A stretch of 61,953 nucleotides of DNA from a virus. Lineage: Duplodnaviria; Caudoviricetes. The translations under genes and the position numbers were made by a program. This document shows, one piece after another, positions 1-52,400 of the stretch (position 1 is the stretch's first letter; every line of letters begins with the position of its first letter). Location: IMG/VR virus record IMGVR_UViG_3300021197_001137, positions 1 through 61,953 of that record, one strand, 5' to 3'. The notes under the pieces were generated by a model that saw only the letters and a program-made list of their open reading frames with translations, made no database searches and was not told the origin of the DNA.

Positions 1-3000
1 GAAATACCTGCTGATCAAGTACAAAGTGCTGTAAATAGAAATAAAATAGGAGCTGAGCTACCTTCAATGATTGGTACACAAATAAATAATAGGTTTTCCA
101 ACCTAGATCCATCCACTAGAGAGGAGTTTACATTTGATGTATTAGAAAAAATATTAAGGCCAAACAAACAAGGTGTTAACAAGGATTTACAATGGGACGG
201 CAGAGGAGACCTGTATGGCTTTTTAAATGGAAGAATAGGTCTTAGGATTAGAGATGCCGTTAGAGAAGATTACAATCGCCCAGAGGCTGAAAGAATGTAT
301 GTGGGGCGTATAGACGCTAAGCAAATAGAAGATTTAACAAAGGAGCCATCAACAGAGCCTACTACTGAGCCTACACCTAAAAAGAAATCTACAACCTCTG
401 AGGAGTCTGTAGAAAGAGGTCAAGCTACTTTTGACGAGCTAGACATTGTTGATGACGATTTAGTAAAAGATATTAAATCTGAGCTTGAAAAAGAAATTAG
501 GGTACGTGTTCAGAAAGGTACATTGTCAGAAACCGTTTCTGTTAAAAAAGGTAGAAATACATATATTGTATCGTGGCTAGAAGACTACATAAATAAGCAA
601 TTGTTCAAAAAGCTCCTTAAAAAAGTGGGTGCAATTAGTGGAACATATCCAGACACTGTAATACCCCCTGCTTATATTGACTTTTTGCAAGATCCCAAGA
701 CTTTTGATATTATAACAAAAGCTTTACCTATTAAAAGCATAAAGAAAAGCTATAGTAAGCTATTTGAAATAGAACGTATAGGTAGAGAAGTAACTGCAGA
801 AGGCAACCCTATATTTAGGATAAAGAAAATAGATAAAACTAAATTCTTTAAATACTTTGTAGATGGCAAAAAATCTACAATATTAGAAAGACAAAAGCAA
901 TTATTTAGAGAAATATTAACACCTGTAACAAAACAAATTGTTGCAGATATTGCGACTGTAGACAATCTAAGTTCATTAAAAGAAATACAGTCCTTGGCTC
1001 CATCTCAATCTGTAGATGTAGTAAATTCTATAGCTATTGAAGCTCAATTAAATGAGTTAGAATCTCAAATAGACAGATACAAAGGCGAAAAAACAGGATT
1101 TGATATTATTCAGTTTTCAAAAAGTTTAAGCAAGGAAGACAAAGCTGCTATTTCTAAAAAATTAGGTTATAAAAGCGATGGAGTTATAGCGATGGCTCAA
1201 TTAGCGGCGCAAATAATATCTCAAACAATAAGCCCTACAAGAAGAAAATACAATAAGTCTTTAAAGAGCATAGAAGAAAAACTTGGCCCTGAGCTTTGGG
1301 AAAAAGTTTGGAAAAACACTCTTAAAGATTATACTAATATACTTGATTCTTTTAAAGCAAAACAAGAGTATACTAATGGAGTATTAGCTGAACAAGTTGT
1401 TTGGGATGTTTTTTCTAAAACACCAGGTATTAAAGTTATTTCTAAAAGACCTGGAGATAAGTCAGGAGATACCTCAGCAGATATTATTATTAAGCATAAG
1501 CAAAAAGAATATATATTTGAAATAAAATACAATAAGACATCTAGGATAACTAGCACAAACATAAAAAATTACCACGATTCATCTAAAATGGAAACTACTC
1601 GTGAAATAGGTGAGGAAAGTAATAAAATAGTTATGGATGCTATAAAAAATAGCAAGCCATTACAAAGCTTTATTAGTAAGGTTGATAAATTTATGGCTAA
1701 AAATTATCCTGGTGAAAATTATATAACTGATTCAGGCTATATAGAGCTAACACCTAAGCAATATGAAGAATTAAATTTAGGAGACAGCCTATATAAAGAA
1801 TCTGTAACTTATATAAATGGCTTAAATGAAAAAATGGTAGAAGCCATATATAATGGAAAAGATACTCATTATATAGGATTTTTAGACATTGGTACATTTC
1901 ATGTAGGTGAAAATATAGCTGGGCTGCCGATACCTAAATTTGAGGGCGATCTATTTACTAGAGCATGGTTAAAAAAAGGTGCGCCTAAAGCCAATGGTAA
2001 AATGACATTCATACTTAAAATGTATGCCCAATTAACAACACCAGCTGCAGACGCTTTAGCCGAAGGGTCTACTATGTCTATAATAAGCTCTGATTCCATA
2101 AATAGCAATTTTAAAAGAATTCAGTTTTCTAAAAGTAAACCTGCGTGGGATCCATTTGATATGCGAGATGTGGTTACTATGGCATTGTTTGGTAAAACTA
2201 AAGCTTTTAAGAATAAACAAAGGTTTGAAAGAACTTATAAATATTTAACTCCTTCTCAACAAAAACAGGTACAGGAGGAAATGAAAAACCATAAATTATT
2301 GCAATTTAGCAAGACTATTAATAAAGCTAAAGCAATGATTAATAGACCCGACGCTCCTCAAAAAGGAATTAGCGTTTGGGATTTCGACGATACACTAGCA
2401 ACTACAAAAAGCAATGTATTATATACTTTACCAAATGGTACTAGAGGAAAAATAAATGCAACTGAGTTTGCATTGCAAGCCGATAGTCTTGAAAAGCAAG
2501 GCGCTGAATTTGATTTTAGTGAATTCAGCAAAGTAATGAAAGGCGCTAAAGGTCCTATGTTTGATAAAGCCATAGCTCGAAATAAAAAGTTTGGCAATGA
2601 CAATGTTTTTATTTTAACAGCTAGACCAGCGAATTCAAAATATGCTATACACGAGTTTTTAAAAGGTATTGGCTTAGATATCAAATTGGAAAACATAGTG
2701 GGCTTAGGCGACGGAACGGCCTTAGCTAAAGCACAATGGGTTGTTGGAAAAGTAGCCGAAGGCTATAACGATTTCTATTTTGCAGATGATGCTTACAAAA
2801 ATGTTAAAGCAGTGCAAGGGGTTCTTGAAGAGGCCGATGTTAAATCTAAAGTGCATCAAGCTAAAGTTCAATTCTCTAAAAACTTGAATAAAGATTTTAA
2901 TGACATTATACAAGACGTTACTGGCGTTTCTTCTAGTACTAAAGTATTTGAAGCTGCTAGTAAAGTTATAGGCAAAACAAAAGACAAATTTAAGTTTTTT

Positions 3001-4860
3001 GTACCATATTCTGCGGAGGATTTTGTTGGTTTGCTTTACCCTTTAATGGGCAAAGGTAAACAGGGAGACGCTCACGCTGCCTGGTTTAAGGAAGCTTTAT
3101 TAGATCCTTACGCTAAAGGGTATAGAGATTTTGAATCTTATAAGCAAAATGCTACAGCTATTGTTAAGCAACTTGTAAAAAGCTTTAAGGATGTTCCCTC
3201 GGGGTTAGAAAAAACTAATTCTACAGGTTTTACAAATGAAATGGCTTTAAGAGTTATATTGTGGGCAAAAAATGGTCACGAAATACCTGGTTTATCTAAG
3301 CAAGAGCGTAGTGATTTAATTAAGGTTGTTCAAGGTGATCAAGCTTTATTAAATTTTGCAAAACAAATACAATCTACTTTAGGTGGTTATCCTGAGCCTA
3401 CTAGCAATTGGTATGCTGGCACAATAACAACGGATGCTATTAACATGATAAACACATCTAAGAGAGCTGAGTTTTTGGAAGCTTGGCAGCAAAACGTAGA
3501 TGTGGTATTCTCTAAGGATAACATGAATAAACTTAGACTTCAATTTGGTGAAAACTACACAGAAGCTCTTGAAGACATGTTATACAGAATGAAGACCGGT
3601 CGTAACAGACCAATAGGAGCAAATAAGCTTACCAATAATTTTATGAATTGGGTAAATGACTCCGTTGGTACTATAATGTTCTTTAATACAAGATCTGCAT
3701 TGCTGCAAACATTATCTATTGTAAACTTTGTAAATTGGGGAGATAATAATCCTATTGCTGCAGCGGAAGCTTTTGCTAATCAAGATCAATTTTGGAAAGA
3801 CTTCAGTATGCTGTTTAATTCTGACTTTTTAAAACAAAGAAGATCCGGATTAAAGAATGATGTTAATGCTGACGACATAGCAAGAGCCGCAGAAACGGCA
3901 ACTAATAAATATAAAGCAGCACTTAGCGCAGTGTTAAAAGCTGGGTTTTTACCTACGCAAATAGCAGATAGTTTTGCTATAGCTATGGGTGGCGCATCTT
4001 TTGTTAGAAACAGAATAAATACTTATGTTTCACAAGGCATGTCAGAAAAGCAAGCTAAAGAAAAAGCTTTATTAGAGTTTCAAGAAATAGCAGAAGAAAC
4101 ACAACAGTCTTCAAGACCAGATAGAGTATCTCAACAGCAAGCAAGTCCATTAGGGCGTATTATATTAGCCTTTGCTAATACACCTATGCAATACATGAGG
4201 CTAACAAAGAAAGCTGTTTTAGATCTTAAAAACAGGCGTGGTGATGATAAAACTAATATAACTAAAATAATATATTATACAACGGTACAAAATATGATAT
4301 TCTCTTCATTGCAGTCAGCTATGTTTGCTGCTTTGTTTGAGGATGATGATGAGGAAATGATTGAGGATAAGCAACTAAGAGCGGCTAATTCTATGTTAGA
4401 TTCTCTGTTACGTGGTACCGGAGTATATGGGGCTATAGCTTCAACAATTAAAAATATATTATTTGAAGTAAATAAACAATCTAAAAAAGATCGACCAGAT
4501 TATACTCAAGCTGGCTTAAGGATGCTTAGTATATCCCCGCCTGTAGATTCTAAAATAAGAAAAGTACTTAGTACAGGTAGAGCTTTTAGTTATAAAACAA
4601 CTAGAGAAAAAATGGTTGGCTTTGGATTAGATAACCCCGCTTTTTATGCAATCGGCCAATCTGTATCTGCTTTTACTAACATTCCTTTGGATAGAGTTAT
4701 AAGAAAAATGGATAATGTTAGAATGGTATTTAGCGATGAAACTAAGTATTGGCAAAAGGTAGCATTGCTATTAGGATATAGCCAGTGGGATTTAGGATTG
4801 GTACAAAAGAAAGACACACCAAATAAGTTTGGAAAAACAAGCAAATGGAAAAAAAGATAA
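1..4860 (+). CDS. C-terminal part of giant putative virion/ejection polyprotein (continues from 59704-61953 across the window junction; ~2369 aa total) with sigma-region-2-like, PD-(D/E)XK nuclease and HAD phosphatase modules
   Basis: Frame 1 is open from base 1. Motifs: GVLAE..SADIII..FEIK (PD-(D/E)XK); VWDFDDT..ILTAR..FADDAYKN (HAD); four QFSK repeats in this part. Follows the tail/internal virion genes. Confidence 0.8.
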   Translation, partial: EIPADQVQSAVNRNKIGAELPSMIGTQINNRFSNLDPSTREEFTFDVLEKILRPNKQGVNKDLQWDGRGDLYGFLNGRIGLRIRDAVREDYNRPEAERMYVGRIDAKQIEDLTKEPSTEPTTEPTPKKKSTTSEESVERGQATFDELDIVDDDLVKDIKSELEKEIRVRVQKGTLSETVSVKKGRNTYIVSWLEDYINKQLFKKLLKKVGAISGTYPDTVIPPAYIDFLQDPKTFDIITKALPIKSIKKSYSKLFEIERIGREVTAEGNPIFRIKKIDKTKFFKYFVDGKKSTILERQKQLFREILTPVTKQIVADIATVDNLSSLKEIQSLAPSQSVDVVNSIAIEAQLNELESQIDRYKGEKTGFDIIQFSKSLSKEDKAAISKKLGYKSDGVIAMAQLAAQIISQTISPTRRKYNKSLKSIEEKLGPELWEKVWKNTLKDYTNILDSFKAKQEYTNGVLAEQVVWDVFSKTPGIKVISKRPGDKSGDTSADIIIKHKQKEYIFEIKYNKTSRITSTNIKNYHDSSKMETTREIGEESNKIVMDAIKNSKPLQSFISKVDKFMAKNYPGENYITDSGYIELTPKQYEELNLGDSLYKESVTYINGLNEKMVEAIYNGKDTHYIGFLDIGTFHVGENIAGLPIPKFEGDLFTRAWLKKGAPKANGKMTFILKMYAQLTTPAADALAEGSTMSIISSDSINSNFKRIQFSKSKPAWDPFDMRDVVTMALFGKTKAFKNKQRFERTYKYLTPSQQKQVQEEMKNHKLLQFSKTINKAKAMINRPDAPQKGISVWDFDDTLATTKSNVLYTLPNGTRGKINATEFALQADSLEKQGAEFDFSEFSKVMKGAKGPMFDKAIARNKKFGNDNVFILTARPANSKYAIHEFLKGIGLDIKLENIVGLGDGTALAKAQWVVGKVAEGYNDFYFADDAYKNVKAVQGVLEEADVKSKVHQAKVQFSKNLNKDFNDIIQDVTGVSSSTKVFEAASKVIGKTKDKFKFFVPYSAEDFVGLLYPLMGKGKQGDAHAAWFKEALLDPYAKGYRDFESYKQNATAIVKQLVKSFKDVPSGLEKTNSTGFTNEMALRVILWAKNGHEIPGLSKQERSDLIKVVQGDQALLNFAKQIQSTLGGYPEPTSNWYAGTITTDAINMINTSKRAEFLEAWQQNVDVVFSKDNMNKLRLQFGENYTEALEDMLYRMKTGRNRPIGANKLTNNFMNWVNDSVGTIMFFNTRSALLQTLSIVNFVNWGDNNPIAAAEAFANQDQFWKDFSMLFNSDFLKQRRSGLKNDVNADDIARAAETATNKYKAALSAVLKAGFLPTQIADSFAIAMGGASFVRNRINTYVSQGMSEKQAKEKALLEFQEIAEETQQSSRPDRVSQQQASPLGRIILAFANTPMQYMRLTKKAVLDLKNRRGDDKTNITKIIYYTTVQNMIFSSLQSAMFAALFEDDDEEMIEDKQLRAANSMLDSLLRGTGVYGAIASTIKNILFEVNKQSKKDRPDYTQAGLRMLSISPPVDSKIRKVLSTGRAFSYKTTREKMVGFGLDNPAFYAIGQSVSAFTNIPLDRVIRKMDNVRMVFSDETKYWQKVALLLGYSQWDLGLVQKKDTPNKFGKTSKWKKR

Positions 4861-10667: not shown

Positions 10668-11516
10668 TTAGTTACCAACACTCAGCTCCGCTTTAATAGC
10701 AGGATAAGGATTGTATTTTAATAATTTTATTTCATCAGATTTAGGTATATATATTTCACCACCATACTGAGTGCACGAATATACACCTGGCGTTGTATAT
10801 ATGCCTTGGTCTAATTGTAATTTAGGTAGTACTCTTTTTGATCTGTCTAAATATACTTTAGCTTGTTCTAGATGATTATTATATAAATGACAATCACCAA
10901 GTTGACCAATTAATTTTCCAGCCTTTAACCCAGCACCTTTAGCTAGCATTTCTAATAATAAACCATACATCGCAATATCGTAAGGTAAACCTAAAAACAC
11001 ATCAGCTGAACGTTGTTGCCACATTAAATCAATAACTCCGTTATTAATATATACTTGAAAAGTATAATGGCATGGAGGCAAAACCATATCATTCATTTCA
11101 TGTGGAGCCCACGCGCTAACCATAAGACGTCTAGAATTTGGATTAGTACTTATGCTATACACAAGCTTTTCGAGCTGATCTACGCCGTTAAAATCACGCC
11201 ATTGTTTTCCATATACAGGGCCTAAAGTTTCATCAGTTCTGCCTGAACGTTCATAATCTGGTCGCCAATACTTAACTCCATTATCTTCTAAGTACTTAAG
11301 ATCAGTTCTGCCGTTTAATATCCAAAGCAATTCAGTTCTTGCAGCATTAAAGCTTATCTTCTTTCCTGTAAGTATAGGGAAGCCAAGTGACATATCATGC
11401 TTAACCGTTCTTCCGAAGACAGACTTCGTCCCAGTCCCTGTTCTGTCCGCCTTATTAAATCCTCCGTAGAGAATTCCTGCCATAAGTCCTCTATATTCAT
11501 TTTCTATATTTATCAT
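10668..11516 (-). CDS. thyA: Thymidylate synthase
   Basis: DRTGTGT, ELLW, LGPVYGKQWR, LPPCH, QRSADVFLGLPYD, DCHLY motifs. Confidence 0.96.
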   Translation of the reverse strand: MINIENEYRGLMAGILYGGFNKADRTGTGTKSVFGRTVKHDMSLGFPILTGKKISFNAARTELLWILNGRTDLKYLEDNGVKYWRPDYERSGRTDETLGPVYGKQWRDFNGVDQLEKLVYSISTNPNSRRLMVSAWAPHEMNDMVLPPCHYTFQVYINNGVIDLMWQQRSADVFLGLPYDIAMYGLLLEMLAKGAGLKAGKLIGQLGDCHLYNNHLEQAKVYLDRSKRVLPKLQLDQGIYTTPGVYSCTQYGGEIYIPKSDEIKLLKYNPYPAIKAELSVGN

Positions 11517-11772: not shown

Positions 11773-13503
11773 CTATTCCCATGGCATTTTTTCACCAGCT
11801 AAATTAATTTGCTCGTGAGGTATAAAACAACCTGACTTTGGTTCCCATTTAAAATGAGCTTCAGCACCATTCTCTCCTAAGTTTTGAAACTTAATCTTTA
11901 ACACTTTGGCTTTTACGGTCTTTTGTTCGTAATCTCTATGAACTAATATACCGTGATAAGAAGCATCATACCATTCACCACCGCCTTTGATGTTATACAT
12001 AGTTGGTTCGTCAATCTTTCCAGTGGATTGATTTTTATACATCTTAGTAGGGTGGGCAACAATAAACACCAATACATCATACTTCTTAGCAAACATTTCT
12101 ATCTTGCTTAGGTATTCCATGGTGTACCTATTAACATCTTCAGTCTTACAGTCTATGTCCCTTACTTTATTAAATGGGTCTATAACTAAACATTTAATAC
12201 CTTTACGTTTAACTAGCTCAGCACCTTTTTTAAGTACTGATTCTAAAGTATAACGTTCCATATCGATGTGAAAGTAATTGCTATTGCAATGATCCGCTAT
12301 TTGATTCCATTTATCACCTCCAATATCATTCCTAGTTGGCATGCCTTGCCAAGTTTTACGCATTAACTTATGAGCATGTAAATATGTTGGTACGTTCTCT
12401 GGAGATGCGAAAGCTGTTTTCCAACCATAGTTCGCATTATATCCGACAACCATCTGATCCACGAAATCCGACTTGCCCGAAGAGGGTATGCCAGTAACAG
12501 TAATAAACTGACCAGTGTACGTCGAAAATATATTATCAAAGTTTTCCAAACCAATTTGAAAGCCAGGCTTGAAACCATTACGAACAAAGTCCGTGACTTC
12601 ATCTTCGATATCCCTGAACGTTGTAACATTCTCCAGTGGTACTGGCTTTGATCTTGAAATACGCTCTGATAGTTTTTCTTTTCCATACTTTAATAAATAT
12701 TCGTTAGCATCCTTACAGTCATCAAATGTAGCTATATAACATACTTCTGATCCTAGCCTACGTATTAGCTCAGTTTGTAACGCCTGTCCAGCTTCGTCTG
12801 AATCTACGGCTAAAATAACCTTTTCCTTGTCTTCGAAATAATCTATACAATTGTCTAAATAATCTAAATTGTTAGTATTAAGTGTTGCCCCATTAGGAAC
12901 AGATATAGCGTTAGTAATACCTGCCTCATGTAAAGCTAACACATCCATTTCGCCTTCAACTATAACACAATATTCATAGCCTACTATGCTGTCTATATTA
13001 TAGAATACTTTCTCAGCACCCTTATATAATTTAAAGTTCTTTCTTCCATCTCGGTATTTAACATTTGTTAATTCGCCGCCCATAAAATAATTGAACTTTA
13101 TTACATTCTCGGTTTTACCGGTCTGAGGCATATATTCAGGACCCTCTCCAATCTTTAGATCGAAGAGAGTTCCCTGAGATATACCACGAGTTTTAAACCA
13201 CTCAATTACTTGATCGCGTATAGCAAATGACTTATCAGGATATTCTGGATCGGGCTGTTCAGGTTTAACATATACCTTTTCAGCTTTACCTTTACGTTGA
13301 TAAGAATGTAATTGAAATGATGTATTACAATTATGACAAGTACCGAGACCCCGTTCCCAATCATAAGACGCACACTTTGCCTTTTGATTCTTGGGTTTTC
13401 TATCGTGAGAACAGTTGGGACATATACCCTGCTTCTTTCCCTCTTCAAGCTTATGTATATTGAATTCATCAATAACAAATCCATTGATCTCTAATGTCTG
13501 CAT
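11773..13503 (-). CDS. T7 gp4/Twinkle-like DNA primase-helicase
   Basis: Zn ribbon CPNC..CHNC; TOPRIM EGEMD and DSD; Walker A GIPSSGKS; LVIDPFN, VAHP. Confidence 0.93.
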   Translation of the reverse strand: MQTLEINGFVIDEFNIHKLEEGKKQGICPNCSHDRKPKNQKAKCASYDWERGLGTCHNCNTSFQLHSYQRKGKAEKVYVKPEQPDPEYPDKSFAIRDQVIEWFKTRGISQGTLFDLKIGEGPEYMPQTGKTENVIKFNYFMGGELTNVKYRDGRKNFKLYKGAEKVFYNIDSIVGYEYCVIVEGEMDVLALHEAGITNAISVPNGATLNTNNLDYLDNCIDYFEDKEKVILAVDSDEAGQALQTELIRRLGSEVCYIATFDDCKDANEYLLKYGKEKLSERISRSKPVPLENVTTFRDIEDEVTDFVRNGFKPGFQIGLENFDNIFSTYTGQFITVTGIPSSGKSDFVDQMVVGYNANYGWKTAFASPENVPTYLHAHKLMRKTWQGMPTRNDIGGDKWNQIADHCNSNYFHIDMERYTLESVLKKGAELVKRKGIKCLVIDPFNKVRDIDCKTEDVNRYTMEYLSKIEMFAKKYDVLVFIVAHPTKMYKNQSTGKIDEPTMYNIKGGGEWYDASYHGILVHRDYEQKTVKAKVLKIKFQNLGENGAEAHFKWEPKSGCFIPHEQINLAGEKMPWE

Positions 13504-15463: not shown

Positions 15464-16216
15464 CTAAAGATAATCAATCACTTGAGTTGCGTCAACGTTA
15501 GCGATAAGACAGTCAATAGCTTCTTTTTTAATTTGAGAAACTATCACTGTTGCAGTAGGAACTTTTAAATTTATATAGTCTGCTATTTCTTTAGCCGAAT
15601 GTTTATCACAATCTAATCCGTAAAATAATCTAACAACATCATATTGCTTTTGGGTTAGGTGTTCTTTCATTAAGCTAAGTAAATATGCATTAAGTATATT
15701 TATATTATAGGGTTCTGAATTATCTGCAAGCTGGTAGGCCATGTGTTCATCATCATTGTCGGTAGGGACATCGTAGCTTGTGAATATACTATTAAAGAAT
15801 AGCGAAACCATTTTATCATCATCCGGGTTTTTTCTAATCTCTTGTAGCTTGTGTTCAGGTATTTTAATATCACCTCGATTAATATCTATTGCGCGTCTTA
15901 TTGATCCTTTAATTCTTTTACTAAAGAAACTTTTTAAAGTTTTTTCAATATCTTCAGAATCAATTAATAGATCCCAATCTAATTTGTCTACCGCCATTAT
16001 TAAACCTTTGTTTCCTTCTTGTATTAAATCGTTAATACTTAAAACGCCGGAAGCTTGTTGTGAGGTTGAAAATTTACGAGCTAAGTTTTCTACTAATGGC
16101 ATAAACTTAATTATCATTTCATCTCTAGTATAATAGTCGTAAAACTTTTCAGGAGGCATAGAAGCTTTTAAATCTTCTTTATATCTTATATAGTTTTGTA
16201 TGTTATATTTTTTCAT
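15464..16216 (-). CDS. Phage sigma70-family RNA polymerase sigma factor
   Basis: PLVENLARKF, DLIQEGNKGLIMAVDK, RIKGSIRRAI (region 2); LTQKQYDVVRLFYGL..SAKEIA (region 4). Confidence 0.9.
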   Translation of the reverse strand: MKKYNIQNYIRYKEDLKASMPPEKFYDYYTRDEMIIKFMPLVENLARKFSTSQQASGVLSINDLIQEGNKGLIMAVDKLDWDLLIDSEDIEKTLKSFFSKRIKGSIRRAIDINRGDIKIPEHKLQEIRKNPDDDKMVSLFFNSIFTSYDVPTDNDDEHMAYQLADNSEPYNINILNAYLLSLMKEHLTQKQYDVVRLFYGLDCDKHSAKEIADYINLKVPTATVIVSQIKKEAIDCLIANVDATQVIDYL

Positions 16217-31564: not shown

Positions 31565-33121
31565 ATGGAATTTAATAATCCTAGTGATATTGTAAAAACA
31601 CTAACCTTTGGTAAAAGTGCAAAGGAACAAATAATGCAAGGCGTTGAAAAATTATCAAACGCAGTAAAGAGCACCTTGGGTGCATCTGGAAAATGCGTGA
31701 TTTATGAAGACGCTCTTGGCCGACCGGTAATAACAAAAGACGGAGTAACCGTTGCAGACAGCGTAGTCTTATTACATCCGGTTGAAAACATAGGGGCAAC
31801 TCTTATAAAAGAAGCCGCTAATAACACAGTAAAAGAAGCAGGCGACGGTACGACTACGGCCACCGTTCTAGCCGACTCATTATTAAAAATTGCTAACGAA
31901 AAGTTACATGAAGAAAAAGTTAGAGACATTAAAGCAGGCATTCTTAGTTGTGCTGATAAAATTAAAATACATCTTGATAAGACCAGTACTCCTGTTAAGG
32001 GCGCTATGCTTAAGAACGTTGCTATTATTAGCTGCAACAACGACGAAGAACTTGGAACCAAAATTGGAGAAGCTTACGAAAAAGTTGGACCTAATGGAGT
32101 CATATTAATGGAGGAGTCTGAAACAAATGAAACATATGTTGATTTTGTTGAAGGCGCTCAATTTGATTCTAAAATTAAATCACCTCATTTAGCTACTGAC
32201 AAAGATAAAGGAACATCTACTTTAGATAATCCTTTAGTTCTTATAGTTTCATCGCCGATACCCAATATCAGGAGAATACAAAATGTTTTAGAACATGCCA
32301 TAAAAAATAAAAGAAGCTTATTAATTGTAGCCGAGGTAGAACAACAACCATTTGCAACATTAGTTGCTAATAAGGTAAAAGGCAATATAAGAGTTAATAT
32401 TGTAGACCCTCCTGGCTTTGGGCCAACAAGAGTTAAGTCAATAGAAGATTTAGCAATATTGACAGGAGCCACAGTTATAAACGAAGAGCTAGGCGATGAT
32501 TTAGATTTAATAGATGTATCAGTACTAGGGGAAGCGGTAAAGTCCGTTACAGACGACAAGAGCACTGTTCTACAGGTTCATGAACCAGACAACGAGGTTA
32601 AAGAAAGAATAAAATTAGTAGAAAGCAAAATAAAAGAAGAAACAAACCCGTTTTTTAGAAAAAAATTAGAGCAAAGGTTGTCAATGCTAACCGGCCGTGT
32701 AGGCATTATAAAAGTAGGAGGAAACTCTAAGGTTGAATTAAAAGAAAAAAAAGATAGGGTAGAAGACGCTATTTATGCAACAAAGGCAGCTTATAAAGAA
32801 GGCATTGTTGCTGGCGGCGGTGTAGCTTTACTAAATGCTTCTAAAAAAATTAAACCAGCTAATAAAGGAGAAGAGATTTTGCTTAAAGCGATACAAGCTC
32901 CTTATTACACAATATTAGATAACGCTGGTATAGTTGAAATAAAAAAGCCAACAACAAAAAATAGGGGTATTGATGTTAAAACCGGCAAGGAAGTTAATAT
33001 GCTTACCGCTGGGATTATAGACCCCGTGTTGGTAACAAAGTCAGCCCTTAAAAACGCAGTTAGTGTTGTAACCACCATAATATCTGCTGATTGCGTAATA
33101 AGTAATAAAAGACTAGCGTAA
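31565..33121 (+). CDS. groEL: Phage chaperonin GroEL
   Basis: TKDGVTVA, AGDGTTTATVLA, PGFG, KKDRVEDA, GGGVAL, GIIDP. Confidence 0.95.
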   Translation: MEFNNPSDIVKTLTFGKSAKEQIMQGVEKLSNAVKSTLGASGKCVIYEDALGRPVITKDGVTVADSVVLLHPVENIGATLIKEAANNTVKEAGDGTTTATVLADSLLKIANEKLHEEKVRDIKAGILSCADKIKIHLDKTSTPVKGAMLKNVAIISCNNDEELGTKIGEAYEKVGPNGVILMEESETNETYVDFVEGAQFDSKIKSPHLATDKDKGTSTLDNPLVLIVSSPIPNIRRIQNVLEHAIKNKRSLLIVAEVEQQPFATLVANKVKGNIRVNIVDPPGFGPTRVKSIEDLAILTGATVINEELGDDLDLIDVSVLGEAVKSVTDDKSTVLQVHEPDNEVKERIKLVESKIKEETNPFFRKKLEQRLSMLTGRVGIIKVGGNSKVELKEKKDRVEDAIYATKAAYKEGIVAGGGVALLNASKKIKPANKGEEILLKAIQAPYYTILDNAGIVEIKKPTTKNRGIDVKTGKEVNMLTAGIIDPVLVTKSALKNAVSVVTTIISADCVISNKRLA

Positions 33122-38622: not shown

Positions 38623-39222
38623 ATGAAAGGTATGTTCGATTTTATAATTGAACCCAAAGAATCTCGATATAATAATCTTAAAAATATAGGTGACAGTAGT
38701 TTAATATTAAATACTGAATTACAGAATCATCAATACGTTAGTCGAGAGGGGGTTGTTATAGCTGAGCCATCCGTTAACACAACAGGAGTAAAGAAAGGGG
38801 ACACCGTAGTTGTGCACCATAATGTTTTTAGAAGATATAGGGACATTAGGGGTAAAGAGAAAAACGGTAAATGTTATTATAAAGATAACATGTATATTGT
38901 TTCCCCTGATCTTATATTTGGCAAAATTAAAGAAAATAAAATATATCCTTTAACTGGCTTTAATTTTATTAAGCCGATTAAAGAAGATAAAATGTTTTCA
39001 ATTGACTTTGAAAAACCTTTAATAGGTATACTAAAATACAAAGATAGTAGCTTAAAAGTTATGACCATTGGTGACTTAGTGGGGTTTAGGCCTGGGTCTG
39101 AATACGAGTTTTTCTTAAATAAAGAAAGATTATACAGAGTACCAACCAATTCAATTACAATTAAATATGAATATCAAGGAAACGAAGAAGAATATAATCC
39201 AAGCTGGGCACAAAGCAGTTGA
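38623..39222 (+). CDS. Tandem GroES-like protein
   Basis: Two GroES-like units (FIIEP..GVVIAEP..VKKGDTVVVHH; FIKPI..GILKY..IGDLVGF). Confidence 0.5.
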   Translation: MKGMFDFIIEPKESRYNNLKNIGDSSLILNTELQNHQYVSREGVVIAEPSVNTTGVKKGDTVVVHHNVFRRYRDIRGKEKNGKCYYKDNMYIVSPDLIFGKIKENKIYPLTGFNFIKPIKEDKMFSIDFEKPLIGILKYKDSSLKVMTIGDLVGFRPGSEYEFFLNKERLYRVPTNSITIKYEYQGNEEEYNPSWAQSS

Positions 39223-39442
39223 AGAATTAATAAAGGTAGCCAAGGAAGCTATAGTTGATTCAGATGATGACATATCAGCTGACAGATTAAAGAACGCGGC
39301 TGCTACAAAAAAATTAGCCATATTCGATGCTTTTGAGATACTCACACGTATACAGGAAGAAGAAGCTATTCTTGAAAATAAACCTAAAGAAGAAGATAAA
39401 AAGAAAACTTTTTCGGGGTTTGCAGAAAGACGTAGTAAATAA
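39167..39442 (+). CDS. Putative terminase small subunit
   Basis: Helical protein translationally coupled to the large terminase. Confidence 0.5.
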   Translation: MNIKETKKNIIQAGHKAVEELIKVAKEAIVDSDDDISADRLKNAAATKKLAIFDAFEILTRIQEEEAILENKPKEEDKKKTFSGFAERRSK

Positions 39443-41655
39443 TGTACGAGCAAACTTTATATAAGATAATAACCCCCATTAAAAAAAACACGCTAACTAG
39501 ATTAAATAAAGCAAAAAAATGGAGGTATGGCTACAACAAAGAACACGATGTTGTTGTAATAAGCAAGACTGGACAAATAGGCGATATATATAATATACAA
39601 AATTTAAAAATAGCGTTGCCTAAGGAACCGGCTAAAATAGATAAGTCACAAGATAAATGGACAGCAGAAGAATATCCTAAAGAACTAAAACAAATACAAA
39701 GCGTTTTTGATTGGCGAGATTATCCTGATGACTTCAAAGAAAAATGGGAACCATATATAGATGAACAATTTAAACGCAGAGAAGAAGGCCATTGGTTCAA
39801 TAATAAGAATGTGGCTACTTACATTACTGGTACTCACTTTATGTACCTGCAGCACTCCAAAATTGATGTTGGGAAGCCAGACTTTAGGGAAGCAAACAGA
39901 TTATTCTTTATATTCTGGGAGGCTTGCAAAGCAGACTCACGATCTTACGGAATGTGCTATCTTAAAAACCGTCGTTCAGGATTTTCATTTATGTCTTCAG
40001 CAGAGACCGTTAATTTGGCGACAATTACTTCAGATGCACGGTACGGTATCTTGTCTAAGTCTGGAGCCGATGCTAAGAAAATGTTCACAGATAAGGTCGT
40101 CCCTATATCTGTCAACTACCCGTTCTTTTTCAAACCCATCCAGGACGGTATGGACAGGCCCAAAACCGAACTTGCCTATAGAATACCCGCCAGTAGACTC
40201 ACTAGAAAATCCATACAAAATAAACAAGATCAGGAATTATTGGAGGGGCTCGACACCACGATCGACTGGAAGAACACAGGTGATAACTCCTACGACGGCG
40301 AGAAGCTTAAACTCCTCGTCCACGATGAATCGGGTAAATGGGAAAGGCCCGACAACATCCTCAACAACTGGAGGGTTACGAAAACAACGTTAAGATTAGG
40401 AGCTAGAATTATTGGTAAGTGTATGATGGGATCAACATCAAACGCTTTAGATAAGGGTGGCGAAAACTTTAAAAAACTATATAATGATTCTGATGTTTCC
40501 AAAAGAAATAGAAATGGACAAACAAAGTCAGGACTCTATTCTTTGTTCATTCCTATGGAGTGGAATTACGAAGGATTCATTGACTCTTTTGGGATGCCTG
40601 TCTTCAACACCCCATCAGAACATCGCGAGGACCCTCATGGAGACGTTATTGACGTCGGAGTAATAGAACATTGGAATAACGAAGCAGAAGGATTAAAAGG
40701 CGACCAAGACGCTTTAAACGAGTTTTACAGGCAGTTTCCACGTACAGAGGAGCACGCTTTTAGAGATGAAACGAAAAACAGCATATTTAACTTAGTAAAA
40801 ATATACGAACAAATAGATTATAATGAAGATTTGCGTAATACCTCTGTTATAACCACCGGTAGTTTTTCTTGGCAAAACGGTATAAAAGATAGTAGGGTTA
40901 AATTTACGCCGAATCCAAACGGTAGGTTTAAAGTGAGCTGGATTCCATCAGATAGCGTTCAAAATAATCAGATTGTAAAGAACGGAAGAAAATTTCCTGG
41001 AAATGAGCACATAGGTGCTTTTGGTTGTGATAGTTACGATATATCAGGCACAACAGACGGTAGAGGATCTAAAGGAGCTTTGCATGGTTTAACTAAGTTT
41101 AGTTTAGAGGATCATCCGCCGAATGCATTTTTTTTAGAATATGTAGCTAGGCCTCAAACTGCGGAGATGTTTTTTGAGGATGTGCTGATGGCATGTGTAT
41201 TTTACGGAATGCCTTTGCTTTGCGAAAACAATAAACCTAGATTACTTTATTATTTAAAAAGAAGAGGCTATAGAGGCTATTCAATGAATAGACCTGATAA
41301 AATATGGAATAAATTATCTGTAGCGGAAAAAGAAATTGGTGGTATACCAAATTCAAGCGAGGACATTAAACAAGCGCACGCCGCTGCTATTGAGTCTTAT
41401 ATAGATCAATATGTAGGCGTAAAATCAGACGGGCAATACGGTAATATGTATTTTAATGATACGTTGAACGATTGGGCTAAGTTTGATATAAACAAAAGAA
41501 CAAAATTTGATGCAGCTATAAGTTCAGGGTTAGCCATAATGGCTTGTAATAAAAATTTATATAAACCTGTTCCTCAAATGCAAAAAAGAAAGTTAAATTT
41601 AAAAATAGCTAAATACACCAACAGCGGTGCATTTTCGAAATTAATAGAAAAATAA
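39442..41655 (+). CDS. terL: Terminase large subunit
   Basis: Variant Walker A LKNRRSGFS; Walker B LLVHDESGKW; MGSTSN coupling motif; nuclease FGCDSYD; followed by portal. Confidence 0.88.
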   Translation: MYEQTLYKIITPIKKNTLTRLNKAKKWRYGYNKEHDVVVISKTGQIGDIYNIQNLKIALPKEPAKIDKSQDKWTAEEYPKELKQIQSVFDWRDYPDDFKEKWEPYIDEQFKRREEGHWFNNKNVATYITGTHFMYLQHSKIDVGKPDFREANRLFFIFWEACKADSRSYGMCYLKNRRSGFSFMSSAETVNLATITSDARYGILSKSGADAKKMFTDKVVPISVNYPFFFKPIQDGMDRPKTELAYRIPASRLTRKSIQNKQDQELLEGLDTTIDWKNTGDNSYDGEKLKLLVHDESGKWERPDNILNNWRVTKTTLRLGARIIGKCMMGSTSNALDKGGENFKKLYNDSDVSKRNRNGQTKSGLYSLFIPMEWNYEGFIDSFGMPVFNTPSEHREDPHGDVIDVGVIEHWNNEAEGLKGDQDALNEFYRQFPRTEEHAFRDETKNSIFNLVKIYEQIDYNEDLRNTSVITTGSFSWQNGIKDSRVKFTPNPNGRFKVSWIPSDSVQNNQIVKNGRKFPGNEHIGAFGCDSYDISGTTDGRGSKGALHGLTKFSLEDHPPNAFFLEYVARPQTAEMFFEDVLMACVFYGMPLLCENNKPRLLYYLKRRGYRGYSMNRPDKIWNKLSVAEKEIGGIPNSSEDIKQAHAAAIESYIDQYVGVKSDGQYGNMYFNDTLNDWAKFDINKRTKFDAAISSGLAIMACNKNLYKPVPQMQKRKLNLKIAKYTNSGAFSKLIEK

Positions 41656-41659
41656 ATAT

Positions 41660-44086
41660 ATGGCTGAGTCAGTTGTAAAATCTTATTTTCCGAGTCAAAT
41701 AGCGAGCGATGAAGAAAAAATGTCATTAGAATATGGCAAGAAAATCGGGCGTGCTATCGAAAGCGAGTGGTTCTCTTCGGATAACGGTATTGGTAGATTT
41801 AGAAGCAATCAAAATACATTTCATAATTTAAGATTGTATGCAAGAGGGGAACAAGGTGTTCAAAAATATAAAGATGAGTTATCTATAAACGGAGACCTAT
41901 CTTATTTAAACTTAGATTGGAAACCAGTTCCTGTGATTCCAAAGTTTGTAGATATAGTTGTAAACGGAATATCTGAAAGAACATTTGATGTTAAAGCATA
42001 TTCGCAAGATCCTTTTGGAGTAGAAAAACGTACTAAGTACATGGAGTCTCTTATTAGAGACATGGAAACTAAAGACTTAAACGAATTCGTAAGAAAGGAA
42101 TTTGGTGTAAATCTTTTTGAGAATGCGCCAGAGGTTGTGCCTAAAAATCAAGAAGAGTTAGAGGTACATATGCAACTTACATATAAGCAGCAGGTTGAAA
42201 TAGCAGAAGAGCAAGCTATCAATGTATTACTTGAAGGAAACAAATATGATTTAACTAAGCGCAGATGTAATTACGATCTTACTACAATAGGCATTGCCTC
42301 AGTTAAAAATACATTTAGTAAATCAGAAGGCGTAGTAATAGACTACGTTGATCCTGTAAATTTAGTTTGGTCATATACTGATTCACCTTATTTTGATGAT
42401 ATTTATTATGTGGGTGAAGTTAAAAGTGTACATATAAATGAACTTAAAAAGCAATTTCCTTATTTAACAAATGAAGATTTAGGACAGTTATCGCAACAAT
42501 CATATAAGGCTAATGGGTTTTATGATAGAACGTTGACAAATGATAATGAGGATGACGCTAATACCGTGCAAGTTTTATACTTTAATTATAAAACATATAC
42601 TAATGAAGTATATAAAGTAAAGGAGTTAGCAACAGGAGCATCTAAAATTATACCCAAAGATGATCAGTTTAACCCCCCTGAAAAAATAATGCAAGAGCAT
42701 AAGATTGAAAAAATATCTCAATCCTTAGAAGTATTATATGAGGGCGTTAAAGTTTTGGGTGGTAGAATGCTTAAATGGGAGTTGGCAACTAATATGATTC
42801 GTCCTAAAAGCGATTATACTAAAGTAAAAATGAACTATAGTATTGTTGCCCCTAGAATGTATAAAGGGCGTATTGAGAGTTTAGTTAGTAGAATAACTGG
42901 CTTTGCAGATATGATTCAGCTTACTCATTTAAAATTACAGCAAGTAATGTCAAGAATGGTACCCGATGGGGTTTATCTTGATGCTGACGGGCTAGCTGAA
43001 ATTGATTTAGGTAACGGTACAAACTATAATCCGCAAGAAGCTTTAAACATGTTTTTCCAAACGGGATCAGTAATTGGTAGATCATTTACCCAAGAAGGTG
43101 ATATGAATCCAGGCAAGGTTCCTATACAAGAAATACAATCTGGATCTGGAGGAGCAAAGTTGCAAAGTTTAATAGGTACTTACAATTATTATTTACAGAT
43201 GATAAGAGATGTTACCGGGTTAAATGAAGCTAGAGACGGCAGTACTCCCGACAGCAGAGCGCTAGTAGGTGTACAAAAAATGGCAGCTGCGAATAGTAAT
43301 ACGGCAACTAGACATATATTAAACGGAGGTTTGTTTTTAACAGCGGATCTTTGTGAAGGTCTTTCTTTAAGGATTTCAGATATAATAGAGTATTCTCCAA
43401 CAAGAGAGGCTTTTATTCATAAAATAGGAAATCAAAATGTAGCGGTTCTTCAAGAGATGGGGGATTTATATTTATATGATTTTGGTATTTTTATACAGCT
43501 ATCCCCAGATGAAGAAGAAAAGCAAATGCTTGAAAACAATATTCAAGTCGCTGTGCAAGCTGGACTAATTGATCTATCTGACGCTATAGATTTAAGAGAG
43601 ATTAAAAACCTCAAACTTGCAAATCAATTGCTAAAAATACGCAGAGATCAAAAACAAAAGAAAGATCAAAAGATACAGCAAGAAAATATTCAAGCGCAAG
43701 CGCAGGCTAATGCTCAAGCGCAACAGGTGGCAGCTCAAGCTGAAGTACAGAAGAGCCAAGCTTTAACAGAACAAAAAATAGGCTTAGAGCAAGCAAAAGC
43801 ACAAATAGATACTCAAAAATTAATGCAGGAAGCTGCTCTTAAAAAAGAGCTAATGCAATTAGAGTTTCAAATGAATATGCAACTTAAAGGCTTAGAGGTC
43901 TCTGGAAGAAAGTCTGAGATACAGGAAAAAGAAGATAGAAAAGATGACCGAACAAAAATACAAGCAACACAGCAAAGTGAATTAATAAATCAAAGAAAAA
44001 ACGATTTACCGCCTAAAAATTTCGAATCCAGTGGAAACGATATACTTAGCGGAGATTTCGACTTAGGTTCTTTCGACCCTAAGTAA
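41660..44086 (+). CDS. Portal protein
   Basis: 808 aa after terL; PVIPKFVDIVV, VTGLNEARDGS, Gln-rich coiled-coil barrel. Confidence 0.85.
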   Translation: MAESVVKSYFPSQIASDEEKMSLEYGKKIGRAIESEWFSSDNGIGRFRSNQNTFHNLRLYARGEQGVQKYKDELSINGDLSYLNLDWKPVPVIPKFVDIVVNGISERTFDVKAYSQDPFGVEKRTKYMESLIRDMETKDLNEFVRKEFGVNLFENAPEVVPKNQEELEVHMQLTYKQQVEIAEEQAINVLLEGNKYDLTKRRCNYDLTTIGIASVKNTFSKSEGVVIDYVDPVNLVWSYTDSPYFDDIYYVGEVKSVHINELKKQFPYLTNEDLGQLSQQSYKANGFYDRTLTNDNEDDANTVQVLYFNYKTYTNEVYKVKELATGASKIIPKDDQFNPPEKIMQEHKIEKISQSLEVLYEGVKVLGGRMLKWELATNMIRPKSDYTKVKMNYSIVAPRMYKGRIESLVSRITGFADMIQLTHLKLQQVMSRMVPDGVYLDADGLAEIDLGNGTNYNPQEALNMFFQTGSVIGRSFTQEGDMNPGKVPIQEIQSGSGGAKLQSLIGTYNYYLQMIRDVTGLNEARDGSTPDSRALVGVQKMAAANSNTATRHILNGGLFLTADLCEGLSLRISDIIEYSPTREAFIHKIGNQNVAVLQEMGDLYLYDFGIFIQLSPDEEEKQMLENNIQVAVQAGLIDLSDAIDLREIKNLKLANQLLKIRRDQKQKKDQKIQQENIQAQAQANAQAQQVAAQAEVQKSQALTEQKIGLEQAKAQIDTQKLMQEAALKKELMQLEFQMNMQLKGLEVSGRKSEIQEKEDRKDDRTKIQATQQSELINQRKNDLPPKNFESSGNDILSGDFDLGSFDPK

Positions 44087-49408: not shown

Positions 49409-52400
49409 ATGCCAGAGTTTGTACGCTTATTTCAAGCCGGTAGAATGAACAAAGACCTCGACGAGAGGTTAGTTCCAAACGGTGAATATCGAGATGCTTT
49501 AAATTTAGATTTAGCTAACTCAGAGGGCAGTAATGTGGGGGCTCTTCAAAACTTAAAGGGAACATTAGAATTAAGAGGAAAGTCAGGTAGAAGTTTAGAA
49601 TGGGAAGATAATTTCATAGACTCCTTGCAAAACGCTTCTTGTATAGGATCATATGTAGATCCCTCAACAGAAAAAATATACTGGTTTATAGCATCTGACG
49701 GAGTTAGCGCTATAGCGGAATATGATCAAACTCAAAATGTAGTATTTCCTATTTTAGTTGACACTAATAATATATTAAAGTTTAGCCCGTCTTATCTTAT
49801 AACTGGCATAAATATAATAGAAGGCATTCTTTTGTTTACTGATGATCAAATGGAGCCTAAAAAAATTAATATTGAAAAATTTAGAACTGGCTCCACTGAC
49901 TTTGCAACTCATTCAAAAATACCTGATTACAATCCGTTATCAGAAACTTATAACAATAATTTAGCAGGAAGGCCAGACTTTGCGGAAGAAGACATTACGC
50001 TTATAAAAAAATCACCTCTTACCGCTCCAACACTCAATTTAGCCGCAAGTAAGTTTGGTGCTGATATTCCAGGAACAGGCGTGACGCCGGTTTCAACACT
50101 ATTTACTACTTCAGGTTTAGAAAACTTTACATACATACCAGATACAGTAGAAGCCGCGGGAGATACAGAATCTATGCCTACTCACGGGGTGTATGAAGAT
50201 AATATTGAAACTGATCCAAATTATTATAGCGACAGTAATTTACCTAGCAACTATGGGCAGGGAATAAATATAACGGTAAGCTCTTCTATTGAGGGGGTGT
50301 GGAATGAAGGTGATATAATTTTATTATCAGGATCTTATAGTAACGAGTACAATGAAACTTTTTCATATGAAATTAGGCTTTTAGTTGTTTCTATAATCAA
50401 CCCGGTCAATATAAAGGTAAAAATACTTTCTATTAGCCCAGAAATACAGGTTTTTGAAAACCCAGTTATATGGGATTGTATTTTAGAGGAAAAGGAACCC
50501 TTATTTGAATACGTTTTTCCAAGATTTGCATATAGATGGAAATATGAAGATGGAGAGTATTCTTGTTATTCAACGTTTAGCGATGTGGCTTTTGTAGGAG
50601 CAGAGTTTGCATACCTGTCATCAGACGGGCATAACAAAGGCATGTCCAATAATATTAGAAAGCTAATAGTTGAAAACTTAACTTGGGGTAGCGACGAGGT
50701 TATAGAATTAGATATTCTTTACAAAGAAGATAGCTCACCTGCTGTTTACGTTGTAGATACATTAAAAAAGAAAAATTACTCTCCTTATTTTGGGGTAGAT
50801 AGTTTACCCACGGATTTTAATATAATATCTGAAATAATCGGTAACATAGTAGAATCTAACCAGCTTTTACGACCATGGGATAACGTTCCAAGAAAAGCAA
50901 AGTCACAAGAAGTGATAGGAAACAGGGTTGTATTTGCTAATTATTTACAAAATTATCCTGTTACTACGGTTAGCTTAAACGCCGCGGCTTTAAGTCAGCC
51001 TCACCCAGATCAATCCTCCGATAACGATTATAATAGAGCTAAAAAATCTATAAAGTCAATAAGGAACTACCAAACAGGCGTTGTTTTTAAAGACGAGTAT
51101 GGCAGAGAAACACCTGTGGTTACAGATTCTTCTGCTGGCGTTGATTTTTCCGTATTTAATTCAAATGACATTAATAAAATAGAGTTATCTCCTTCCGGGG
51201 ACGCTCCAGATTGGGCTACTCATTATAAGTTTTTTATAAAAGATATATCTAATGAATATTATAATTTAGCTTTAGATAGATTTTACCCCGCTGAAGATGG
51301 CAATGTTTGGCTGTCGTTCCCTTCGTCCGAAAGAAACAAAGTAACAGAGGACACTTATTTGATACTTAAAAAGCAGCACGCAACGCCTGAGTCTGTGGAA
51401 GAGCTTTTAAAATATAGAATACTCTCTATATCCAACGAAGCGCCTACATTTATAAAAAGAAGAAGAAAAGCAATTGGTAGGTCTGACGTAACCACTATAT
51501 CTTCAGCTAGACCTCAAGTAGGCAGTGTATTTTTTAAATTTACTGGACCTTCCGCTGATGCAGATCCTAATTTTGCAGGAGGTTTTTCTTCTAATGCTTC
51601 TTTGCGCATAAGTTTTGGTTCAAATTCAACAGATGTTTATGAGATACAATCTGGTGGACCAACAGGGGCTGGTAATCAATATGGTGTTTCTATAGACACA
51701 CCTTTAGGGGATGAAGCCTTTTTCTTAAATTCTTTACCAGTAGGCTCATCAATAACTATAGTTTTATTTGAAGAGGAAGATAAAGAATTGCCGGAATTTA
51801 GCGGTAGGTTTTTTGCTAAAATAAATAGAGATGTTGGGTTTGAAAAGAATGTGGTCGACACATTCCCTATACAAGAGGATGAGTACGGTATAAAAAATTC
51901 TTTTCAAGTTTTACCATTTAAAACCCAAGGAAACGGCGACAGTTCTCAACAAGCTGTGTGGTATGATAAAGGTAATAATTCCGGTAGCAGCAGCAGAAGA
52001 AGGCCTCATGGTCACCAATGCCCTTGGAAATACCCGGGAGAATGTGCTGACAAGACAAAGTGGACCGTAATGGTACATGGATTACTCAGAGAGGATAGAA
52101 ACAATCCTGCTTCGTGGCTTGGAGGATCAATGGAAGATCTTTCTAAAGTTGGCACTTATATTAGGTTTGCAGATGCCGCTGGAAATATAGGGCAAATATA
52201 TAGTATAAGAGCAACAGATAGAGCATTTAAGAGAAGAGGTCTGAGGTCAAGCAATTCAAACTATGACAACTTCAGTAATGGTAGAAATCAATGGAATATA
52301 ACATTTAACGAACCATACGAGGACTTCGGCTTATTTTCAAATAGAGTGGGATCAAACCCTATAGCTCAAATACAAATATTAGAAAAAGTTCCTAAAGAAG

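Follow-up and report, generated by a model that had tools for sequence, protein, structure and literature searches.

Recurrent QFSK peptides at the module joints of a giant phage protein as candidate cut sites of its built-in zincin-like domain

Giant phage proteins in which unrelated enzyme domains are strung together with an HExxH...E metallopeptidase (MPTase) have been described as polyvalent proteins of the phage type, and the MPTase was proposed to divide the chain, either prior to or following delivery, into functional units (Iyer, Burroughs, Anand, de Souza and Aravind 2017, PMC5512222). Among the large MPTase-bearing proteins treated there, DdrB of phage P1 is packaged in the head and proteolytically processed, and the virion RNA polymerase (vRNAP) of phage N4 is packaged unprocessed. 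The main text of that paper reports no repeated site motif for these two proteins, does not contain 'linker' and has 'cleavage site' solely in the title of a reference; a junction peptide delimiting the modules is thus not described there. Here, we analyzed a complete IMG/VR virus record of 61,953 bases (IMGVR_UViG_3300021197_001137, hereafter the window), whose last plus-strand gene encodes a giant protein resembling these polyvalent proteins. Five copies of the tetrapeptide QFSK delimit its domains. There is good support for reading the protein as a modular cargo polyprotein whose modules are joined by a junction peptide, and the best explanation for the peptide, to which we assign a probability of about 45%, would be that it is the cut site of the zincin-like domain carried by the same chain.

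Self-processing of polyvalent proteins is already published as an idea (Iyer 2017), but the junction peptide was not found in print: no description could be found among the papers listed for QFSK or for cleavage sites of polyvalent virion proteins. The window protein has the multi-domain build of polyvalent proteins, as it comprises 2369 amino acids with an HAD phosphatase, a nuclease-like module, a zincin-like domain and further exchanged modules. Its gene also lies in a late, structural neighborhood, following terminase, portal, virion structural and tail genes on the same strand. Unlike the families of PMC5512222, neither the window protein nor 24 homologues gave a detectable Pfam MPTase-PolyVal or LPD family. 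Profile searches of the PDB revealed no sequence relation of the giant protein to P1 DdrB or N4 vRNAP.

Built-in proteases that free modules at short linker sites are known from MARTX toxins and viral polyproteins. As in the giant protein, conserved ends flank exchangeable modules in these systems, a likeness of design for which no homology is claimed. The differences are that MARTX toxins are secreted bacterial toxins with a cysteine protease domain, and that polyproteins of RNA viruses encode the whole proteome. The prohead protease of T4 and phiKZ-like phages is a separate protein which cleaves packaged internal proteins within the capsid, at short consensus sites, and also cuts capsid and scaffold proteins. 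In contrast, the motif is here confined to one protein, and no protease family was recognised in the 30 other open reading frames (ORFs) scanned with PHROGs or Pfam, smaller ORFs lying outside the scan.

The record is classed as linear (CheckV 97%), so that repeats at its ends give no proof of a join. The giant gene occupies both ends, with both halves in frame 1 and both nucleotide lengths being multiples of three:

59704 to 61953, plus strand: first 750 codons of the giant gene (protein half P0001), open to the last base of the record without a stop; N-terminal tandem units, helical region, zincin-like domain and motif 1.
1 to 4860, plus strand: remaining 1619 codons and stop codon (4858 to 4860; protein half P0002), 5′ end open; continuity with the first half via database protein P0008.

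P0008 (2355 amino acids) is 100% identical to residues 1-750 of P0001 and proceeds from position 751 with the first residues of P0002. Because P0008 runs through both record ends, the join is seamless and the giant protein has 2369 amino acids, as an earlier note on this DNA had claimed for the ORF joined across the junction. The record was opened inside the giant gene, and the assembly artefact which that note had considered for the junction is not seen, since P0008 spans it without a break. A scan of IMG/VR confirmed 568 of 599 candidate stretches, and 80 loci were retained from these. An unbroken ORF with a minimum of 2000 amino acids encodes the giant protein in 75 of the 80 loci; contig ends truncate the gene in three others, and frameshifts break it in the remaining two. 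Assembly errors or decay probably account for the frameshifts in these two loci, L013 (at about 12315-12331) and L031 (at about 10780-10789 and about 14208). One lies within the HAD module and one six residues past a joint motif, and an interpretation of the two broken ORFs as split genes was rejected.

The positions of the five QFSK copies and their preceding residues (L, I, I, L, V) proved to be as originally noted. For segmentation, the chain was cut at QF[SAN][KQR], before the Q of the motif. The earlier note had cut after the K, and apart from this its unit sizes were recovered, giving the architecture N (735 amino acids), M4 (385), M7 (337), M3 (60), M2 (189) and C (663). The elements are given below in the order of the chain; for each motif, the enclosing segment with a predicted local distance difference test score (pLDDT) below 50 is named.

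61909 to 61920, plus strand: junction motif 1, L-QFSK, between N domain and M4; low-pLDDT segment 733-750 of P0001.
1 to 1110, plus strand: module M4 (385 amino acids, including 15 before the record end); low-complexity stretch, sigma-region-2-like lead at about 208-255, and alpha/beta part.
1111 to 1122, plus strand: junction motif 2, I-QFSK, between M4 and M7; low-pLDDT segment 352-374 of P0002.
1111 to 2121, plus strand: module M7 (337 amino acids), PD-(D/E)XK-type nuclease-like; D at about 1474-1494, E-x-K at 1510-1536, YNGKDTH at 1849-1872.
2122 to 2133, plus strand: junction motif 3, I-QFSK, between M7 and M3; low-pLDDT segment 680-714 of P0002.
2122 to 2301, plus strand: module M3, helical spacer unit of 60 amino acids; in some homologues, 11-18 amino acids lie between two motifs instead.
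2302 to 2313, plus strand: junction motif 4, L-QFSK, between M3 and M2; low-pLDDT segment 767-771 of P0002.
2302 to 2868, plus strand: module M2 (189 amino acids), HAD phosphatase; DFDDT in the region 2377-2406.
2869 to 2880, plus strand: junction motif 5, V-QFSK, between M2 and C domain; low-pLDDT segment 954-960 of P0002.
2869 to 4860, plus strand: C-terminal domain (663 amino acids), conserved more strongly than any other part of the family; the modelled portion is helical.

From the composition of the protein, 0.041 copies of QFSK would be expected (probability of at least five copies, 9.4e-10), and no other tetrapeptide in the giant protein exceeds three copies. In the six frames of the remaining phage DNA, QFSK occurs once (at 53947), in a frame broken by stops, and in no other protein. 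The codons differ between the copies, as noted before (Q: CAG/CAA; F: TTT/TTC; S: TCT/TCA/AGC; K: AAA/AAG). Likewise, the 36 distinct QFSK sites of the IMG/VR relatives are encoded by 10 different words of 12 nucleotides, with AGY for serine in 16 and TCN in 20 of them, which supports conservation of the motif at the level of the peptide and not of the DNA.

The motif is also conserved in homologues, a point on which the earlier note had made its reading depend: QFSK is present in 115 of 120 close homologues and occurs at least twice in 88 of them. The motif logo obtained from 180 distinct contexts reads [ILV]-Q-F-S-K-[TSN]-[LVI], with I, L or V before the Q in 124 of the 180. A few homologues have QFAK, QFSQ, QFSR, QFNQ or QLSQ at the same alignment columns, and divergent clades have [ILV]-K-F-S-K-[ST] or N, S or M in front of FSK. 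In 75 IMG/VR proteins, the stretch separating the zincin domain from the C domain contains FSK 137 times (32.3 expected). Joints of the same protein tend to agree in the residue preceding FSK (0.46 compared with 0.225 ± 0.039 after shuffling; none of 5000 shuffles reached the observed value). In some homologues, two motifs are only 11-23 residues apart, which is too short for a domain. FSK alone was rejected as the signal. The window protein contains two further FSK triplets, VDVVFSKDNM in the C domain (3502-3525) and FSEFSKV in the HAD fold (2515-2535), both within confident helices, and the former (VD.[IV]FSK[DE]N) is conserved throughout the family, including proteins that lack the zincin.

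Homologues share the same grammar of modules, with exchanges. M2 has 189 amino acids in most copies (173-193 in all) and M7 has 337 in most, while the third slot is occupied by M7, M6 or M5. M7 and M6 are distantly related (hhalign 74%, E 2.8e-5); M5 is unrelated to both (hhalign 0.5% and 0.1%). As breakpoints we took the ends of BLAST homology between the window protein and 188 homologues, and counted those within 25 residues of a motif as near. Overall, 284 of 504 breakpoints are near a motif (11% by chance), and downstream of residue 700 the figure is 284 of 391 or 73% (15% by chance); counted as distinct positions, 94 of 151 are near a motif. The motif therefore stays at the boundaries while the cargo modules are swapped, the point that the earlier note had wanted to test in an alignment of homologues. 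P0008, mentioned above, offers a separate observation: it is 100% identical to the window protein over the first 750 residues and only 78% afterwards, has M6 and not M7 in slot 3, and looks, from these sequences, like a recent recombinant within one population.

Structures were predicted with AlphaFold2 for P0001 (alignment A3, mean pLDDT 70.9) and for residues 1-1200 of P0002 (alignment A1, mean pLDDT 62.5). Location of QFSK inside folded domains had been named before as a finding that would speak against a role as joint; in the models, all five copies (at residue 736 of P0001 and residues 371, 708, 768 and 957 of P0002) lie in segments with a pLDDT below 50. Such residues make up 119 of 750 in P0001 and 306 of 1200 in P0002, and random placement would bring all five motifs into them with a probability of about 7e-4. 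With the two whole models as queries, Foldseek found nothing in the PDB at E ≤ 0.001.

The protease candidate is located immediately upstream of motif 1:

61291 to 61887, plus strand: zincin-like domain (residues about 530-728); HEFLH helix at 61501-61515, Glu654 (61663-61665) on a later helix.

Across 47 zincin domains with 11-35% identity (alignment A5), H600, E601, H604 and E654 are invariant, so that the HEFLH zincin proposed in the earlier note stands as a conserved HExxH...E zincin-like domain. In the AlphaFold2 model, strands 538-542, 575-578 and 581-585 precede HEFLH (residues 600-604), which lies in helix 597-610, and E654 is located in predicted helix 648-664; it would be the third zinc ligand of a gluzincin type. 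Rows named 'polyvalent' were obtained from BFVD with E values of 0.013 and weaker. Fold searches with the whole 750-residue N-terminal model (VIA-align, Foldseek) gave lists filled by helical hairpins. A predicted complex of the zincin (residues 525-732), zinc and a linker peptide with motif 2 (P0002 350-392) had a score of 0.01 and a mark of 0.32 and weighs neither way.

In a scan of 75 IMG/VR proteins, hmmsearch matched the zincin in 46 with its default filters, and the remaining 29 all matched with --max. A supposed class of proteins bearing the motif without a zincin was rejected as an artefact of these default filters, with a clade carrying EELFH as the sole remaining exception. Six full-length relatives are devoid of a zincin region, also when the HMMER filters are off, and contain no [HE]ExxH anywhere; where their C domain is joined, all six also lack the motif. 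In the joint table, 122 zincin-bearing proteins have the strict motif and 31 do not, many of the latter having relaxed forms (QASK, QMSK, QLSK). The table holds five of the six zincin-less relatives, as P0147 has no anchor there, and its two rows with a motif and no zincin are N-terminally truncated fragments. Absence of the zincin is associated with absence of the motif (Fisher P 0.0067, uncorrected). In a tree of the C domain, the six zincin-less proteins occupy at least four places, beside neighbors bearing KFSK or KFSR. Furthermore, Asp or Glu directly precedes the zinc-binding Glu in 24 of 26 proteins of the K type compared with 2 of 59 of the Q type.

The carrier is an uncultured podophage of marine Bacteroidota, the relatives of its portal pointing to marine Flavobacteriia as probable hosts. 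Its portal protein has 54% identity to that of an uncultured podovirus, 42% to those of Flavobacterium Elemovirus phages and 26-37% to those of Cellulophaga, Maribacter and Tenacibaculum phages, and all 87 portal matches are below 60% identity. With P0002, a word-indexed search scored 8000 candidates, of which 3700 proteins reached E ≤ 0.001; the top 120 have mostly 2100-2800 amino acids. With P0001 (N domain), an exhaustive search found 583 representatives of half-identity clusters, and a related-locus search with P0001 alone found no relative. Pfam covers no part of the family, as judged from the window protein and 24 homologues. In cultured phages, the same position as last gene of the structural block, behind portal, capsid and tail genes, is held by a 3694-amino-acid 'structural protein' of Flavobacterium phage vB_FspP_elemoA_13-1A (QMP84709.1) and by gp101 of Cellulophaga phage phi40:1 (1691 amino acids), which is a structural protein by tandem mass spectrometry (MS/MS) proteomics according to its GenBank note. 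The elemoA protein matches hidden Markov models (HMMs) of the zincin (E 2.9e-8) and of the helical N-region (E 8e-8); it differs from the giant protein in having no QFSK, no enriched FSK and no C domain. In gp101, there is no HExxH, no QFSK, enriched FSK or C domain and no detectable homology.

We propose that the giant chain would be made and handled as one polypeptide and would probably be packed into the virion, like the product of the syntenic last gene of the related cultured phages, an analogy that also suggests its ejection. The zincin of the chain, acting on the same molecule or on another copy, would cut it at the joints, and the modules would be set free as separate proteins. As zincins usually prefer a hydrophobic P1′ residue, the cut would lie between Q and F. 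The modules may then act in the host, which could include takeover before gene expression. An extended form of this proposal, which as one joint claim we consider doubtful, is a cut-site code: packing of a giant chain would be common to thousands of marine Bacteroidota phages, and a built-in zinc protease would free modules from it (nuclease, RNA/DNA-end phosphatase, perhaps a sigma-like factor) at [ILV]-[Q/K]-F-S-K. From lineage to lineage, the P1 residue of all joints would vary in step with the pocket residue beside the zinc-binding Glu. If such a code were true, each lineage would process its own cargo only, and modules would be freely swappable provided that they bring the joint.

Several observations weigh against cleavage by the built-in zincin. 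Motifs 4 and 5 begin predicted helices, so that the term 'linker' stays a prediction, and low pLDDT does not prove disorder. The zincin-less proteins are alike upstream of the C domain; loss of the motif may therefore represent one to four independent events. The association of Q or K with the acidic residue comprises 2-4 independent contrasts, about one of them in the expected direction, and significance is unreachable. The covariation with the residue before Glu654 did not withstand correction for relatedness and stays a lead. Five related loci (L021, L023, L030, L037, L063) have EELFH in place of HExxH and retain 2-4 [KN]FSK sites. No recognisable motif is present in 22 of 174 zincin-bearing proteins and in 15 of 75 IMG/VR loci. 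As to the domain itself, Pfam gave no match to it in the window protein or 24 homologues, and the best PDB-profile rows for the zincin (A5) are of the snapalysin type and not significant (1c7k, E 0.18; 4hx3, E 0.19). Finally, tblastn of both halves against the cultured-phage collection gave no match, i.e. there is no cultured homologue at BLAST level, and phi40:1 gp101 shares only its position with the giant gene, neither sequence nor motif. Independent of this weighing, it can be added that the EELFH clade retains the downstream Glu of the zincin-like domain.

The strongest of the rival explanations, which we regard as possible though unlikely, is that the motif is never cut and that the joint peptide is read by a common partner, be it for capsid docking or tail threading, as a chaperone signal or as a module cap. 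The persistence of a single ORF in nearly all relatives and the helices starting at motifs 4 and 5 agree with this, and the concerted use of Q or K within a protein fits any common reader; as to chaperones, the phage encodes GroEL/GroES. Cleavage, moreover, is deduced from sequence and models. Paired motifs that are 11-23 residues apart and enclose no domain are, however, hard to understand as domain caps, and the motif is missing where the zincin domain is missing. Also, a variable residue followed by a hydrophobic one (F, rarely L, M or Y) and S-K would resemble the subsite pattern of a protease. If the motif is cut, the enzyme might be another phage protease, or a host protease after ejection, with the zincin having a different task, e.g. 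on host proteins. Iyer 2017 (PMC5512222) allows for MPTase domains as effectors on host proteins, the EELFH clade retains motifs, and some zincin-bearing proteins have none. Nevertheless, this alternative appears improbable to us: the scan of the 30 other ORFs described above recognised no protease family, QFSK occurs in no other protein of the phage, and the zincin-less relatives lack the motif.

Clustering of homology breakpoints at the motif, together with P0008, which diverges after 750 identical residues and has another slot-3 module, could also indicate that the motif is a by-product of module shuffling, i.e. a short DNA homology used for recombination of cassettes. The codons argue against this, as they differ between copies (AGC versus TCN for Ser), the 36 sites having 10 different 12-nucleotide words and near-background codon usage. 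In addition, homologous recombination needs more than twelve bases, and we consider such an origin very improbable. Three further candidates were rejected. A Gln-Lys isopeptide cross-link does not fit the other clades, which have K, N, S or M at the position of the Q. Autoproteolysis by the upstream fold, as at the HF/S site of nucleoporin, is countered by upstream modules that are mutually unrelated, and a ribosomal slippage signal by the varying codons. Cleavage by the built-in zincin remains our preferred reading, at the probability given above.

Concerning the cargo, the assignment of the 189-amino-acid unit M2 as an HAD phosphatase was confirmed by HAD motifs and by matches to Pnkp phosphatase folds, making it by its model a T4 Pnkp-like HAD 3′-phosphatase domain. 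The sequence contains DFDDT (DxDxT motif I), LTARP and ADDA. Over model residues 773-957, VIA-align found the 3′-phosphatase domains of Pnkp1 (4xrp_A, Z 10.8, root-mean-square deviation 2.7, 119 residues aligned), T4 Pnkp (5uj0_B, Z 10.7) and 1ltq_A (Z 10.2), with many HAD hydrolases next in the list. The fold match stops at residue 956/957, exactly before motif 5. A weak match to phrog_415 'polynucleotide kinase' (E 4.6e-4) was the sole useful Pfam or PHROGs result for both halves. Unlike T4 Pnkp, M2 has no 5′-kinase half, since it comprises 189 residues and the matches cover phosphatase domains only.

For M7, the PD-(D/E)XK nuclease-like character is supported by an invariant D...ExK signature in its sequence, with D in ADIII and E-I-K in YIFEIK on predicted strands 495-499 and 502-506. 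The signature does not vary among 10 M7 sequences, nor does its equivalent RPDI...ELK among nine M6 sequences, and both modules have a YN-x-KDTH motif in common. Language-model neighbors of M7 are clusters of R.HinP1I, MspI and HaeIII (0.89-0.91), which is a lead only. The confidence of the model is low in this module (pLDDT below 50 at 482-494 and 504-537), and the list from the fold search was filled by the HAD domain. The suggestion that M4 is sigma-like kept its language-model lead and found no support from Pfam or PDB profiles. Its neighbors are Sigma70_r2 clusters at 0.91 with a low count of shared features. Pfam gave no match at E ≤ 0.1, no sigma chain appeared in the PDB profile search with the N part of M4 (alignment A6), and no similarity to the sigma factor gene of the phage itself was found; a sigma-like M4 is a lead only. 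M4 is composite in that several relatives (loci L024, L035, L042, L043, L069, L079, L081) have its first ~170 positions (window 1-480) but not the remainder, and the pattern [FY]-[DN]-P-x-K ... D-[LFI] ... R is common to these N parts. The C domain could not be matched to a known fold, the whole-protein alignment A1 being without a match in the PDB profile search. The helical C-terminus described in the earlier note is seen in the model wherever this domain was modelled.

The N-terminus of the giant protein has a repeat structure of its own:

59707 to 59868, plus strand: two tandem 24-residue units (residues 2-25 and 32-55), confidently helical with a pLDDT of 85-90.

The first ~90 residues are common even to homologues that differ over the next ~350 (matches limited to 1-93, with 89-443 uncovered). 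Short tandem repeats also open the giant proteins of elemoA and of Manatee Spring podovirus as well as phi40:1 gp101. The N-terminal tandem repeats may be a packaging signal.

On the plus strand, from about 25 kb onward, the window contains tail-fibre-like genes, GroEL, a GroES-like gene, terminase, portal, virion structural proteins, genes without assignment and the giant gene as the last one. The minus strand carries genes for ribonucleotide reductase, thymidylate synthase, primase/helicase, exonuclease, an Erf-like protein and a sigma factor. The genes of interest are as follows:

15464 to 16216, minus strand: free-standing sigma factor gene in the replication/early arm (phrog_351, E 1.9e-19).
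31565 to 33121, plus strand: GroEL (phrog_5725, E 8e-139).
38623 to 39222, plus strand: GroES-like protein (phrog_13932, E 1.7e-10).
39442 to 41655, plus strand: terminase (PHROGs/Pfam).
41660 to 44086, plus strand: portal (PHROGs/Pfam).
49409 to 54736, plus strand: virion protein of 1775 amino acids (phrog_14478); the crAss muzzle C-terminal domain PF25729 is sub-threshold, with 23.4 bits versus 27.

GroEL and GroES-like genes are also present in the Elemovirus relatives.

Self-processing of polyvalent proteins has so far been predicted without a defined site. In the family described here, a single chain can hold up to five or six copies of a short, explicit candidate site, which makes this prediction directly testable. 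With the site, 'dark' giant virion proteins can also be divided objectively into modules when they are annotated. For the biology of the abundant marine Bacteroidota phages, it would mean that their genes may be preceded in the cell by two enzymes which the phages bring along, a restriction-like nuclease and an end-healing phosphatase of the Pnkp type.

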